Assembly (NCBI GenBank): GCA_965219685.1
Contig: CBDCOH010000002.1
Span: 1,024,001 to 1,088,000, forward strand
DNA: 64,000 nt
Reading direction: 5' to 3'
Source of the DNA: Candidatus Spongiisociaceae bacterium
GTDB taxonomy: Bacteria > Actinomycetota > Acidimicrobiia > Spongiisociales > Spongiisociaceae
The translations under genes and the position numbers were made by a program. Shown in pieces: positions 33,174-38,294 of the stretch. The stretch's first letter is position 1; each line of letters starts with the position of its first letter. The notes beneath the pieces are model-generated. The model was given only the letters and a program-made list of their open reading frames with translations. It ran no database searches and had not been told where the DNA came from.

Positions 33174-36100
33174 GTGAACGGTTCGGATCAGTATGTGGTC
33201 TTCGACTTGGAGACGAACGCGGACCGGCCCGAGGCGGCCGAGCACGAAATCATCCAGATCGGCGCGGTTGCGGCGTCGGCAGCCGGTGAGTTGGATTCGT
33301 TCGAGAGTTTGGTCCGGTCGCAGCGGAGGCTGCCGCCGAGAATCACCGAGCTGACCGGATTGGAGTACGGGGACCTTGCCGGTGCACCCTCCCTCGAGCA
33401 GGTACTGAGCAGCTTCTTCGGCTGGGTGGGTGATCGGCCGTTGATCGCTCACAACGGTTTCGGCTACGACTTCGAGGTCCTCGACGCGGCCGCGGCTCGG
33501 ATCGGGCTCGCTCCACCGGCCGGGCCTCGTCTCGACACCCTGGAGTTGGCGCACCTCGTGTTTCCCAGGGCCGGATCGGCGATCCCGGGCGTGGACGGCA
33601 GCACCCCGCCGGCGGGTAGGAGCCTCGATCAGCTGGCTCACCTGTACGGGGTTGCGGGCCGGGACCGCCATGACGCATTGAACGACTCGCGGATGACCCG
33701 GTCGGTCATGGTCGGACTGCTGGAGGACATGGACCGGGCCACGCCGGCGCGGCGCCTGCAGCGATGGATCCTCCGAGTGGCGGGTCATCCGTGGTCCCGG
33801 TTCCTGGCTCCGGAAGCGGAGCCGCCCTCTCTCGCAGAGGTGGTTCCCCCAGCGGCCGCGGGCGCCCGCTCGCCGCCCACGGGGCGTTTCGACATCGGGA
33901 CGGTGGTCCGGTCCTTTCAAGCGGGTGGCCGCCTGATGACCGGCGCCAGGACGCCTCGCCCCCAGCAGGCCGAGATGGCCGGACTGGTGGCAAGAGCCTT
34001 GTCGAGTTCCGGCTCGCGCTGGATGATCGAGGCGCCGACCGGTACCGGCAAGACTCTCGCCTACCTGGTCCCCGCGATCGAGATGGCAAGAGCGTCCGGC
34101 CGTACGTCGGTTATCACCCCGCACTCCCGGGTGCTGCAGGACCAGATCCTGGCAACCTTGGAGGAACTGAAGGAGGAGATCGGTCCGTTCTCGACGGTGG
34201 TGCTGAAGGGACGGCAGAACTACGTCAGTCTCAAGGCGCTCGATGCCGAACTCGCCGGCCTGGAAGGTGAGTCGCGGCGGAATCCCGCCCTGAGCCCCGT
34301 TGCGCTATCCCTGGCCATGATTAGCGGTTGGGTGTCGGAAACCCCGACCGGTGATTGGGCCGACCTGCGAACGGCAGCGGTTGCTGCCCGGTTGCGTCCC
34401 CTGCGGTTCTTCCGGTGGAAGCTCCGGGTCAACACCCGCCCGGGCCTGATTCTGACCCCCCTCGACGCACTCGACTTCCATCGCCGGGCTTTGCAGGCCG
34501 TCAAGACGGCCCACGTGGCGGTCCTGAACCATGCGCTGCTGGCCACGGGTCCGGAATTGGAGGAGAACCGCTTCAACCTCGTGATTGACGAGGCCCACGG
34601 CCTCGAGGACTCGGCCACCGCGGCGGCCACGCTGGAGGTGAGTAGAGAACAACTCGAGCAGTTGTGCGACGCCTTATGGGACGGCCGGGTCCGGCGCGGT
34701 CTCGCGGTGAGGCTGGCGACCGCCACCGGAGCGGGACTCAGGGACCCGAGGATCGACAGGATCCGGACCGCGACGGCCGCAGCCCGGGTTGCCGTCGAGC
34801 GCTTCTCGAACCCCCTCACCGACTACCTGCGTGACCGGACCGGGGTGTCACGGGAACAGGCGGTCCGTTACGGCGCCGCGTACCGCATCCGCCGGGGAGT
34901 GGACACCCGCCACCCCGCATACCGGGAGGTCCTCAGGACGGGTGGCGCCCTGAGGAACGCGTTGCGCCAGGTGGTCGGAGCCCTCGATGGGATCACGGTG
35001 CCGGAGAAGCCGGCCGGCCGCTACCGCCGCGACGCGTTGGAGGACGAGATATACCGTCTCGTCCGCGAAGTCCGGGATGCGGACCGCCTCGTCGACTCGG
35101 TTCTGCGGGCTGCCGGCCAGCTGCGTCTCTTCGACGACCACCTGGCCGAGCATGAGTTGGTCGAGTGGATCAACGTAGCCGAGGTCTCCTTCGAGGCCAC
35201 CGAGGGCGGAGTTCCTGAGGAGGATCTCGATAGCGCTGCGGCGAAGATCCCGCCGGGACGATGGCGGTGGGCGCTGCGGCGCGCTCCCCTCTCGGTGGCG
35301 GGGCTGCTGGCTGATCTTTGGGATCGGGCTCACGCGGTGTTGCTGACCTCCGCCACCCTGCGTTCCGGTGACGACTTCGGCTACCTGGTCGGTCGGCTCG
35401 GACTCGGCAGTGCGGAGTCCAGGGTGATCGGCACACCCTTCGAGAGGCTCTCCGAGCAGCACCTGCTTCTGCTGACCGATTACCTGCCGGCTCCCCGCGG
35501 TGGGCTGATGGACCGCTTCACGGAGATTGAAGCCACGGAGATCCCTCGACTCTTCGTTGCAGCAGATGGCGGGGGGATGGCTCTGATGACGGCGCGCAAC
35601 CGGCTCGACTACGTTCGGGACCACTCCCGTCCCCACCTGGCCCCGCTGGGAATCGAGTTGCTGGCGCAGGGAGACGCATCGTCGCCGGTTCTGGTCGAGC
35701 GGATGCGAGACAACCAGCCGGCATGCCTCCTGGGACTCAGATCCTTCTGGGAGGGCGTTGACATTCCGGGGAACGCCCTCAGGCTGCTGCTGATCGAGAA
35801 GGTGCCGTTCGACTCGATCGGCGATCCTGTCGTGAGCGCCCGGACGGAGTTTCTCGAGCTGGCGGGGCGGGATCCCTTCGCCGAATACATGGTGCCGAGG
35901 GCGGCCATCGCCTTCGCACAGGGTGTGGGACGGCTAATCCGTAGGGAGGACGATCGGGGAGCGACCGTTGTGCTCGACAACCGGCTGCGCCGCCCGGTTC
36001 CCTACCGCGACGTTCTGCTCCGCAGCCTCTCCGGGCCACCTGCCCGGAGGGACATCGATACTCCCGGCGAGGCGTACGCGGCGATTACTGACCATCTGGA

Positions 36101-38294
36101 CATCGCCCTCGACTCGGATCGGTGGGAACGGATCGGGCGGATCCCGGGTGTCGAGACGCTGTCCCGTGCTGCACTCGAGGTGGATGGGGACGACCTTTCC
36201 GACGGGGAAGCCATCGACCGGGTCTTGGAGACAGCCCGGGAGTGGCTGGGATTCGACAGGTGGCGCCCCGGCCAGCGGAGGATCATGATCCGTTTCATGC
36301 GCGGCGAGGACACGGTGGCTGTTCTCCCGACCGGCTCCGGGAAGTCCGTGACCTACCAGATACCCGCCCTGGTGTCGCCGGGCGTGACGTTGGTGGTGTC
36401 GCCGCTCATCGCGCTGATGCGGGACCAGGTCGACAACCTGCGCGCCCGTGGGGTCACCGAAGCCGCCGCCATATATGCGGGGGTAGGTCAGGCGGAGCAG
36501 GAGGCGATCCTGCGGGCGGCGGCGGCCGGACACATCAAGCTGCTGTACGTGAGTCCGGAGCGGCTCTGGTCTCCGGTGTTCCGGTCGTGGCTGGCGGGTG
36601 TCGACGTGGCCCGCGTGGCGGTGGACGAGGCCCACTGCATATCGATGTGGGGTCACTCCTTCCGGCCGGAGTACGCGATGATCCCGAGGGCCATCGCCGA
36701 AGTGACCGGCGGCCGCTTGCCCGTTCTCGCCGTGACCGCGACCGCTACCTCCGAGGTGCTGGAGGACATCCGTGAGTTGCTGGGAGTGTCGGCGGAGCCG
36801 CTGGTCGGTTCGGTCAACCGACCGGAAATCCGCTACTACGTGGAGCGGTGTAGCAACAGGCGGGACCGGGAGCTCCGGGTGGCGCAGGTGGTGGAGGCCT
36901 TTCGCCGGAAGAGCGCCATCGTCTACGTCCCGAGGGTCAGGGACACCACCCTCCTGTCGGGCTTGTTGAGGACCTTCGGTCATCGGGTCCGGCCATACAA
37001 CGGCGAGATGGAGTACCCGGAGCGCCAGCACACCGAGGACGCCTTCCGCCACGGAGAGATCGACGTGGTGGTGGCCACCAAGGCATTCGGCCTCGGCATA
37101 GACAAGCCTGACATCGCCCTCATCGTGCATCTGGAGATGCCTGCCTCGATCGAGGAGTACGTCCAGGAGACGGGACGGGTGGCTCGTGGCGCAGCCGATG
37201 GCAGCGGGCCCGAGACCGGAGCGGCCGTGCTGCTGGTGACCCCGAGGGATTGCGGCATCCACGACTTCTTCGTGAAGTCGTCGGTTCCCAGACTCGACGA
37301 CATCCGGCGCGAATGGAACAGGCTCGACGTCGGGATGAACTACATCGATCCCGGGAGCGAGGCATCCCCGGCCGGGGACGCGGGCGGCGACCGGGATCAG
37401 GCCAGGGCGCTGGCCCTCCACTACCTTGACCAGGTGGGAGCGCTGCGGCGGCATCGCGACTTCGTCCTCCGCGGGCGGATATCCGTCCTGGAGGATACGG
37501 AGGGACGGATGAGCGATCTCCGGCTCCGGCGGCCGGATCTGGCGCGCCGAGCCGAGTCGATCGTCGGCGATAAGGTGGCGGGTTCCCGCGACTACCACGG
37601 CCTCCGGGCGAGCGAGAGGCTCGACATGGACCCTCCCGAGATCGAAGCTGTCCTGTTCGAACTCCAGAAGAGAAGTGTCTGCGGTTTCACCGGCTGGAGG
37701 TACGGGTGGAGTTTCGAGCGTCGGGCCGGAATCGAACCCGACTGGCACCTTCTGCGGAGCCTGATCCGCCAGCGGCGCGAGACGATGGAGGAGAGGGCTC
37801 GCCGCGCACGCCGGCTGGCACATGGTTTCCGGGGGTGCCGCCGCCGCGAGATGTTGCGTTACCTGGGCGAGCCTGATCCGGCCTTCGGGGTGTGTGGCGG
37901 GTGCGATGCCTGCACGCCTGACCTGCCCCGCCCCTGGGAGCGGATCGATATCCGGGCCTCCGACGTGCGGGACGCGATCCAGGAGACCGCGCTGGTCACG
38001 ATCCTGCTGCTAGTCGACGATGTGGAGCGGGGCCGGTTCTCCCGGTCGAATCTGGTCCGGGCGTTGCGGGGCGATGGCGGAGGGCCTCACCCGCTCCCCC
38101 GCCAACTCCTGCTGCACGGTTGCTTCGATCGCCTGGGGATGCTTGAACGGCAACAGGTGGATGAGTTGGTGGACGACGCGATCCGCGACTGCCGCATCGA
38201 AGAGGTCGAGGTGGCATACGACGGTCGCGTCTACACGAGCCTGTGCTTGACCGCCGACGGCCGGGAGCTCCTCAGGGGCCGCTACGCGGGTTAG
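33174..38294 (+). CDS. DEDDh 3'-5' exonuclease - DinG-like SF2 helicase - RecQ helicase fusion
   Basis: [85 protein letters not shown]...CGGCDAC. Confidence 0.92.

Follow-up and report, generated by a model that had tools for sequence, protein, structure and literature searches.

What does a bacterium do with a single protein that joins an exonuclease to two helicases of opposite expected polarity? The question is raised by a gene in a 64,000-nt stretch of DNA (hereafter the window) from Candidatus Spongiisociaceae bacterium (assembly GCA_965219685.1, contig CBDCOH010000002.1, positions 1,024,001 to 1,088,000). Nucleotide coordinates are those of the whole window, not of the gene alone, unless a locus or genome handle precedes them (L and G numbers are our handles for loci and genomes). 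The gene (33174..38294, + strand) encodes a fusion of 1706 aa that comprises, in this order, a DEDDh exonuclease, a DinG-type superfamily 2 (SF2) helicase without an Fe-S cluster, and a RecQ helicase. We found that the fusion is coupled to a third helicase gene directly downstream, a superfamily 1 (SF1) partner, and that the two form a conserved two-gene, three-motor module.

The fusion frame begins at a GTG codon and runs for 1706 codons with no internal stop, according to the open reading frame (ORF) list and its translation. Six Pfam domains lie along it between residues 8 and 1581, in the order that the original prediction, made from the sequence alone, had given: RNase_T (PF00929; residues 8-175, 2.7e-22, 80.5 bits against a cut-off of 24), ResIII (261-335), Helicase_C_2 (PF13307; 793-951, 6.4e-33, 114.6 bits against 25.3), DEAD (1032-1197, 6e-36), Helicase_C (1241-1338, 2.5e-21), and RecQ_Zn_bind (PF16124; 1523-1581, 27.8 bits against 25). 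On the + strand of the window, the DnaQ/RNase T-type DEDDh 3'-5' exonuclease domain occupies 33195..33698 (residues 8-175), the DinG/XPD-type helicase module, which lacks the 4-Cys Fe-S site, 33951..36053 (residues ~260-960), and the RecQ core of two RecA-like domains 36216..37205 (residues ~1015-1344). The DinG module matches the PADLOC model typeIV_DinG over residues 260-960 (6.5e-92), and also the solved structures of an exonuclease-DinG (8zef) and of E. coli DinG (6fwr). Its matches to the NCBIfam equivalogs for DinG and exonuclease-DinG are strong, yet they fall below the cut-offs, including those of the Firmicute exonuclease-DinG models (NF005981/PRK08074, 356 vs 789 bits; TIGR01407, 331.9 vs 547.7; NF005569, 166 vs 794). 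The RecQ half scores above its curated family cut-off (TIGR00614 recQ_fam, 282.4 bits vs 219.8, residues 1023-1339), and the solved RecQ 4tmu aligns to residues 1019-1344 (5.6e-74). Pfam found no PDDEXK_1 domain in the fusion or the partner.

The residues expected to do the chemistry are kept. Across 27 aligned homologues of full length, with 49-82% identity to the window protein, D99, H166, and D171 of the DEDDh catalytic set are invariant, and D11 and E13 are present in at least 90% of the sequences. The Walker A (287-294) and DEAH (472-475) motifs of the DinG motor are invariant or nearly so, as are GxGKS (1054-1058), DEAH (1151-1154), and motif VI (Q1331-R1338) of the RecQ motor. All four zinc-binding cysteines (C1555, C1574, C1577, C1580) are invariant; when distant fusions are added (28 sequences), three remain so and the fourth is kept in at least 90%.

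The RecQ tail is unusual. Matches to solved RecQ cores stop at residue ~1340-1344 and the zinc module (37740..37916, +; residues 1523-1581) begins at 1523, which gives an insertion of ~180 aa. We modelled residues 1337-1706 from a 28-sequence alignment (model md4118bc3c8bd; mean predicted local distance difference test score, pLDDT, 85.3). In this model, the insertion is predicted to form two helix-plus-beta-hairpin, winged-helix-like units (37383..37721, +; residues ~1404-1516), built from elements H68-84/E88-102 and E135-139/H140-163/E167-180 with pLDDT mostly above 85. The protein would end in an RQC-type winged-helix domain (37971..38291, +; residues ~1600-1706). The best structural match of the modelled last ~107 residues is the RQC domain of WRN (3aaf_B; Z 12.0, root-mean-square deviation 3.0, 102 aligned residues); Deinococcus radiodurans RecQ (4q47) gives Z 11.0, and Foldseek comparisons with the BLM and WRN RQC domains give TMt 0.65-0.71. 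At the sequence level, the C-terminal 327 aa have no PDB match at E≤1. Many members of the RecQ family, though not all, also carry an HRDC domain. Pfam detected none here, and the chain ends with the RQC fold, although a divergent HRDC could escape these searches.

Most of what had been read from the letters of this gene therefore stands. All five residues of the DEDDh motifs are kept among the homologues, the RecQ motor is complete by family cut-off and motifs, and the predicted insertion of roughly 200 aa before the zinc cluster, the cysteine cluster itself, the RQC-like end, and the lack of an evident HRDC domain all reappear in our analysis. Motif VI had been called a variant; there is some variation, but it is mild and both arginines are kept.

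Could the joined frame instead be an assembly artefact, or a decaying pseudogene in which two helicase genes were mis-joined near 36100? We consider the chance of this to be vanishingly small. In run X5, a sponge metagenome that belongs to another study, one contig runs over 33183-40300 and shows 115 substitutions but not a single gap, and a 541-nt contig from run X7, which is labelled a coral metagenome, covers 35655-36195 with no differences. Run X2 is near-identical throughout; it may be the source sample and is therefore not independent. The junction, for which the original prediction had allowed a mis-join, is thus spanned without a gap by contigs from an independent study, and no stop lies between the domains. 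Moreover, 108 of the 120 homologues listed are full length, covering 98-100% of the query at 48-92% identity, the same single frame occurs in single-contig chromosomes, and the catalytic residues are invariant. Nothing in the window supports an artefact or pseudogene, although some relatives are broken (L053, L065, L064, G304). The fusion is a real, intact protein with no mis-join.

The damaged relatives are of several kinds. In L065, a ~1.8-kb insert that carries 557-aa ORFs breaks up the fusion twice over, as two copies; the fusion of L053 is split into 375 and 1359 aa, that of L064 is truncated at 376 aa, and G304 contains a single in-frame TAG. In L067 the split is into 743 and 369 aa, and the partner in L047 is divided into 185 and 428 aa. 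These may reflect decay or sequencing errors.

The partner gene (38388..40202, +) starts 93 nt past the stop codon of the fusion. It encodes 604 aa, with an N-terminal, nuclease-fold-like (NERD-like) domain of ~215 aa followed by an SF1 UvrD-like helicase (Pfam UvrD_C and AAA_19). By tblastn, 32 of 33 loci from sponge-symbiont Acidimicrobiia have the partner immediately after the fusion, and in the sole exception, L064, it is the fusion itself that is truncated. The other neighbours in the window behave differently: across the 33 loci, uvrA, the transporters, the glyoxalase gene, and uvrB are common only to the two closest. The gap between fusion and partner is short or negative in most of the 20 gene-called loci, and the identities of fusion and partner to the window copies are closely correlated (r = 0.96, n = 32). 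Where one chromosome holds both copies (L037, L048), each copy has its own partner. The motifs GSGKT, DEAQD, NYRNT, and TRA are invariant in 19 aligned partners. The original prediction had pictured a single-chain bipolar helicase-nuclease; the chain does not stand alone, because a third helicase gene is coupled to it throughout almost the whole clade.

What is the N-terminal domain of the partner? The best PADLOC model for the protein, C3a187 'NERD+UvrD' (4.2e-40), covers only residues 201-596, the helicase part, and none of three partner N-terminal pieces has a Pfam match to NERD (PF08378) at E≤1. In the ESM Atlas, 27 of the 30 clusters nearest to the N-terminus are NERD (score 0.92-0.93), and the partner model (pLDDT 76.2) shows a predicted N-terminal alpha-beta-beta-beta-alpha-beta core; as a whole, the model resembles Schlafen-type and UvrD-type SF1 helicases. 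In 19 sequences, the position of the canonical lysine is an invariant proline and the acidic residue varies. We therefore call the domain NERD-like and consider that it is probably not catalytic.

A mark of DinG/XPD-type helicases is a 4Fe-4S cluster bound by four cysteines between motifs Ia and II. The fusion has the sequence KGRQNYVS and no cysteine between K293 and D472, as had been predicted, and all 27 of 27 sponge-clade fusions have 0-2 cysteines in this interval. Among distant fusions, 8 of 11 carry NYxC plus a C-x3/4-C-x5-C pattern. The Fe-S site therefore appears to have been lost in the sponge clade, and, judging from the cysteine pattern, the Fe-S-less state is not general for the fusion architecture. 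Unfused DinG-type proteins of ~1000 aa, found in Acidimicrobiia metagenome-assembled genomes (L066:9968-12991 and L068:9938-12934), match fusion residues 6-985 at 35-37% identity. Like the fusion, these exonuclease-DinG proteins are Fe-S-less, and they share its GW..ETPTG.W.DLR signature. Proteins of this type may be the source, or a derivative, of the N-terminal two-thirds of the fusion.

How widely is the fusion spread? The closest named relatives are in sponge-associated Acidimicrobiia (Candidatus Spongiisociaceae, Aldehydirespirator, Poriferisocius, Poriferisodalis). A tree of 31 fusions, obtained by a quick search and rooted on the long-branched distant rows, supports the sponge clade fully (SH-aLRT, an approximate likelihood ratio test, 100) and divides it into two main sub-clades, each with more than one family; L082, recorded as Aldehydirespiratoraceae, is placed among Chloroflexota sequences. 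Within the family of the window, 20 of 29 genomes (16 of 19 high-quality ones) have a match at E≤1e-100, and G312, G325, and G306 have two copies. Of 301 evenly sampled genomes of the class, 161 have a match to at least part of the fusion; 71 matches lay outside the list that we analysed. None of our conclusions depends on the unpublished genome G275. Among the matches listed, a near-full-length frame occurs only in G000, G182, and G187, and most other genomes of the class encode separate RecQ-size (~550-750 aa) and DinG-size (~640-700 aa) frames.

The occurrence of separate frames elsewhere in the class raises the possibility that the fusion is a lineage-specific joining of housekeeping RecQ and DinG, inherited vertically, and that the downstream helicase is an unrelated neighbour. 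The window genome and G182, which show no separate copies at E≤1e-20, would fit this explanation. We nevertheless find it improbable. No fusion is found at E≤1e-100 in 9 of the 29 family genomes, including 3 of the 19 high-quality ones, and in G320 and G322, whose completeness is 96-97%, nothing resembling RecQ or DinG matches below 1e-12. Within the family, the presence of the fusion bears no relation to whether RecQ or DinG is also encoded separately: G312 combines two pairs with a 721-aa RecQ, while a RecQ alone is found in G317 and a DinG alone in G313. Moreover, paralogous clades are common to different families, and the partner has been retained over 39-71% identity and many rearrangements.

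At its site in the window, the pair is flanked by uvrA and a glyoxalase gene, within a conserved backbone of pgk, rapZ, uvrC, ..., uvrA, [pair], ..., uvrB, rpsA, polA. This site is shared with G307, G312, and G306. In the congeners G308, G311, and G310 the pair is elsewhere in the genome, and in G310 a gap of 184 bp, too short to hold the pair, separates uvrA from the adjacent glyoxalase gene. By eye, G310 and the window are recognisably similar immediately beyond the stop of the glyoxalase gene and the start of uvrA. Since this empty site shares both flanks, the block at ~33046-40203 is present or absent as a unit. No integrase or transposase was seen in the block of the window. Across 20 loci, the pair occurs in at least 13 different neighbourhoods. 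The pair thus behaves as an accessory, horizontally mobile two-gene unit, which is patchily distributed, sometimes duplicated, and found in varied contexts.

A heptamer array, (GGTGAAT)n, with 20.6 copies (32899..33043; Tandem Repeats Finder) lies at the left edge of the inserted block, and homology to the empty site of G310 ends near it. The frame given for uvrA in the ORF list (30028-33126) is over-extended through this array. With the canonical ATG at 32844, uvrA occupies 30028-32844 on the - strand and encodes 938 aa, and the intergenic region between the divergent uvrA and fusion genes is 329 bp rather than 47 bp. The array is a genome-wide repeat and not part of the pair; a four-copy heptamer pattern has 169 + 136 matches across the genome vs 0 in a reversed control.

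Outside the sponge clade, the fusion keeps different company. Single-ORF fusions of 1580-1851 aa, at ~30% identity, occur in Chloroflexota, Vulcanimicrobiota, Deinococcus, Thermus and Meiothermus, and other Actinomycetota, and megaplasmids of Thermus, Meiothermus, and Deinococcus carry relatives. Pfam confirmed the three-module order in L069, L082, and L099. The frames of the distant fusions often abut or overlap the downstream gene. This gene is a UvrD-family helicase in L094 and L099 and an SNF2 giant (2236-2624 aa) in L072, where it matches BrxHI/DrmD-type models (2.1e-74), and in L073, where it is recognised by Pfam. In L082, L089, and L090 it encodes a Sacsin-domain giant, which matches TmtA of the Tiamat system in L089 (4.4e-146) and L082 (7e-48). 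The fusion of L082 is preceded by a gene homologous to the partner in the window (5.6e-35 by hmmsearch; by hhalign, a probability of 99.7 across the helicase part), so that the order there is partner-like helicase, fusion, TmtA. Judged by their sequences, distant fusions share operons with defence-type genes of the Tiamat or SNF2 kind. A preprint that appeared in October 2026 (10.64898/2026.09.30.754977) reports in the passages concerned that helicases, often nuclease-fused (SF2, NERD-SF1), are the commonest Tiamat neighbours, and predicts binding of a Type I-G Tiamat protein to its associated NERD-helicase; those passages do not name DinG or RecQ.

Other neighbours of the distant fusions are varied. 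For the 609-aa gene that follows the fusion in L069 (Ardenticatenia), neither Pfam nor PADLOC gives a family, and it shows no relationship to the partner. A 1795-aa gene upstream of the fusion of Thermus HB27 was considered as Tiamat-like and rejected because it has no such likeness. In Deinococcus aquatilis, a 2803-aa frame divergent from the fusion (L099:1320-9731, -) combines SF2 DEAD/Helicase_C and SF1 UvrD motors, and is thus a second tandem-helicase giant at that locus.

Are defence genes also enriched around the pair in its home clade? At 13 loci that differ in context, we took the five ORFs to either side of the pair (130 ORFs) and compared them with 16 control regions that lie 400 kb away in 8 of the same genomes, from which the nine central ORFs were taken (eight in L112; 143 ORFs), using PADLOC at E≤1e-15. 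The flanks hold matches to SoFic (L039), PD-Lambda-5 A and B (L057), a C5 methylase with IetA and IetS (L042), PDC-S01 (L045), an SNase-type candidate (L052), and an HNH protein with a C5 methylase (L061), and four further matches that we judged generic (mad2, mad3, an oxidoreductase model, and a partial HamB on a DUF3516 helicase). A type II restriction-modification set is among the flanks. The control regions hold three generic mad3 matches as well as PDC-S01, a nicking endonuclease, and a type III methylase. Counted by ORF, 14 of 130 flanking ORFs match vs 6 of 143 in the controls (odds ratio 2.76; p = 0.060 two-sided, 0.03 one-sided); with generic matches removed, the counts are 10 of 130 vs 3 of 143 (odds ratio 3.9; p = 0.044 two-sided). 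By Pfam, transposases or recombinases are in the flanks of L041, L042, L048, L051, and L052, and restriction-modification genes in those of L042 and L061. Two complete defence systems stand beside the pair: ietAS at L042:17270-20997 (IetA 2.1e-130, IetS 1e-255) and PD-Lambda-5 at L057:18940-21263 (PD-Lambda-5_A 5e-87, PD-Lambda-5_B 5.7e-94).

We read the pair as an accessory three-motor helicase-nuclease whose targets would be foreign or aberrant DNA, which makes it a candidate module against phages or plasmids, and we give this reading about even chances. It is suggested by the coupling of the two genes, the mobility of the pair, its redundancy with canonical repair enzymes, the operons that distant relatives share with Tiamat and SNF2 genes, and the modest enrichment of defence genes nearby. 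The genome of the window already has an AdnAB-like pair, a RecB-like protein, and UvrD/PcrA-type helicases, all encoded elsewhere, as are all four PF12705 matches.

A number of observations weigh against this reading. The defence enrichment that the original prediction proposed as a check is seen at the level of ORFs (~2.7-fold) but is not significant by locus: 7 of 13 loci have a match vs 6 of 16 control regions (odds ratio 1.94; p = 0.47 two-sided), or 6 of 13 vs 3 of 16 with generic matches removed (odds ratio 3.7; p = 0.23 two-sided). Because ORFs within one locus are not independent, the enrichment is a lean and not proof. The ORFs came from our own simple GC3-based caller, and the controls from only 8 of the 13 genomes. 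No PADLOC match occurs in 6 of the 13 contexts, and by Pfam the flanks are mostly metabolic, several contexts purely so. PADLOC v2 has no model of the pair as a system, and the fusion matches only generic helicase models in it. The genome of the window has no TmtA by genome search, the best match being one of 43 residues at 2.2e-10, and no Sacsin or TmtA gene is among the window's neighbours. In a phage collection, 0 of 39 matching records carry the fusion. The partner's N-terminal domain, with no Pfam NERD match and its lysine replaced, adds to these points. So do the repair genes near some pairs, namely uvrA in the window, a Tag glycosylase gene in L045 and L057, and NucS in L046. Finally, the fusion query finds no other RecQ or DinG in the window genome except a 237-aa RecQ-like fragment, so the fusion may be supplying RecQ and DinG housekeeping roles there. 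The fragment (G000:C2:3972604-3973044; L002) is 41% identical to fusion residues 1107-1250 and may be a relic of another RecQ-type gene.

Several of these points are expected if the pair is an accessory module for repair or replication stress that supplements or replaces separate RecQ and DinG enzymes. The exonuclease-DinG part would remove R-loops or 3' flaps at stalled forks, and RecQ and the partner would process forks, gaps, and structured GC-rich or repeat DNA. In its favour, every domain has a repair pedigree, some loci have repair genes as neighbours, and this genome lacks another strong RecQ or DinG homologue. The pair lies between uvrA and uvrB in the window and in three congeners, and the Tag glycosylase genes of L045 and L057 are within two genes of it. 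The D. deserti genome paper, in the part concerned, groups the fusion and its UvrD/REP neighbour with extra repair proteins (PMC2669436), and S. aureus exonuclease-DinG is reported to have both 3'-5' exonuclease and 5'-3' helicase activity (PMC12345164). However, the adjacency to uvrA is not kept within the genus, as the empty site of G310 and the displaced pairs of G308 and G311 make clear. The spread is patchy, and two copies occur in some genomes that also hold a separate RecQ (G312). Relatives are plasmid-borne and have operon links to Tiamat and SNF2 defence-type genes, and canonical resection and UvrD enzymes are already present in the genome. We regard a repair role as the main rival explanation, though as less likely than not. 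As between repair and defence, the evidence leans to defence or conflict.

The triple architecture had been thought uncharacterised. Experimentally this holds according to our literature search, but the architecture itself was already in print: a DnaQ/DinG/RecQ protein was noted in Thermus thermophilus HB27 in 2005 (PMC1274311) and in Deinococcus deserti in 2009 (PMC2669436), in the passages of those papers that deal with it. In the corresponding part of a 2021 paper, the D. deserti protein, Deide_06510, figures only as a zinc/cysteine-site protein (PMC7907104). Searches with fusion phrases and locus tags returned no further paper on DinG-RecQ fusions and no functional study, and RecQ, DinG, and NERD are absent from the main text of a domain-centric defence-discovery paper (PMC13069673). 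The proteins of T. thermophilus HB27 (pTT27, TT_RS10770, 1649 aa) and D. deserti (Deide_06510, 1683 aa, beside the UvrD/REP gene Deide_06520) have the same domain order as the window fusion and a similar length, and the D. aquatilis relative has the full Pfam set and, as in the window, a UvrD-family gene downstream. However, the Thermus/Deinococcus type is only ~30% identical to the window fusion. Unlike the window protein, the relatives in T. parvatiensis (L096) and D. aquatilis (L099) retain the cysteine pattern of an Fe-S site; in the former, no RNase_T domain was detected. Downstream of the Thermus copy are three hypothetical genes, none of them UvrD-like, and the Deinococcus partner shares only generic SF1 similarity with that of the window.

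How does the module compare with better-known machines? The exonuclease-DinG proteins of S. aureus and B. subtilis have been characterised, and the activities reported for this type of protein are 3'-5' exonuclease and 5'-3' helicase (PMC12345164, PMC12525004). S. aureus DinG (8zef), which matches residues 4-493 (3.4e-33), has a DEDDh exonuclease and an Fe-S-less DinG motor as in the fusion, but the Firmicute proteins lack the RecQ half. Bacterial RecQ proteins (E. coli 1oyw, C. sakazakii 4tmu, D. radiodurans 4q47) have the same core, 4-Cys zinc module, and RQC winged helix; the window fusion differs in its insertion, in having no HRDC found, and in placing RecQ behind a second helicase. Human WRN, a eukaryotic repair and telomere protein, likewise combines a DnaQ-type 3'-5' exonuclease with RecQ in one polypeptide, but with no DinG motor between them; the resemblance is architectural and not one of orthology. 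RecBCD, AddAB, and AdnAB unite two motors of opposite polarity and a nuclease in one machine. They do so with SF1 motors and a RecB-type PD-(D/E)xK nuclease, whereas the window fusion has two SF2 motors, with polarities assigned by family only, and a DEDDh exonuclease. Distant fusions share operons with the Tiamat gene TmtA, whereas the window and its genome lack it. Gabija was considered and rejected: the strongest match to GajB (4e-14) is at its best over residues 529-592 only, and no OLD/GajA-type gene is among the neighbours.

How might three motors and an exonuclease work together? DinG-family helicases move 5'-3' and RecQ-family helicases 3'-5'. If the fusion keeps these family polarities, its DinG and RecQ motors would act on opposite strands of a DNA end or fork, and both would then advance along the duplex in one direction, like the motors of RecBCD, AddAB, and AdnAB. 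The duplex could be held or split by the RQC domain and the additional winged helices, and the DEDDh domain would trim the emerging 3'-ended strand. The SF1 partner, presumably bound to the fusion, may load on or feed single-stranded DNA, or it may sense the substrate.

Some further features of the window deserve mention. A promoter-like site, CTGACC-18 nt-TAGAAT (33135..33164, +), ends 9 nt before the GTG of the fusion, so the fusion mRNA may be leaderless; it is the sole sigma-70-like match in 32700-40500 (one found; shuffle mean 0.7). By eye rather than by computation, no LexA box or RecA-NDp-type motif was seen in 32846-33173. Perfect or near-perfect GGTGAAT arrays also lie in intergenic DNA at 7625-7668, 10345-10402, 29996-30027, and 45890-45993, so that arrays flank uvrA on both sides and stand just upstream of uvrB; they could alter promoter spacing. 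At 23515-25599 (-), a gene next to a BCCT transporter and a second OpuAC gene encodes a 694-aa protein with an OpuAC binding domain of the glycine-betaine type, an SBP_bac_3/ligand-gated-channel binding domain, and a pore (Ion_trans_2, Lig_chan), which may be an osmolyte-gated, glutamate-receptor-like channel.

Why does the pair matter? The fusion has appeared in genome papers since 2005 without a function, and it now has a constant partner, mobile behaviour, and ties to Tiamat and SNF2 operons. If the pair works as outlined, it would be a new way of building a bipolar DNA-processing machine, from SF2 parts and an obligate third helicase; RecBCD-like machines are built from SF1 parts. A broader proposal, to which we give somewhat less than even chances, is that the pair is the core of an undescribed anti-mobile-element family, in which three motors (SF2 5'-3', SF2 3'-5', and SF1) and a proofreading-type exonuclease destroy invading linear or replicating DNA, modules are swapped with Tiamat and SNF2 systems, and the sponge branch does without Fe-S and Tiamat. 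If this is true, the 'repair' fusions of Thermus and Deinococcus would be immune genes. The question of function is testable in tractable hosts such as T. thermophilus HB27 and D. deserti. Moreover, the apparent loss of the cluster in one branch of an Fe-S-keeping family offers a natural experiment on the role of Fe-S in DinG-type motors. Finally, the pair may account in part for the abundance of helicases among the accessory genes of sponge symbionts.

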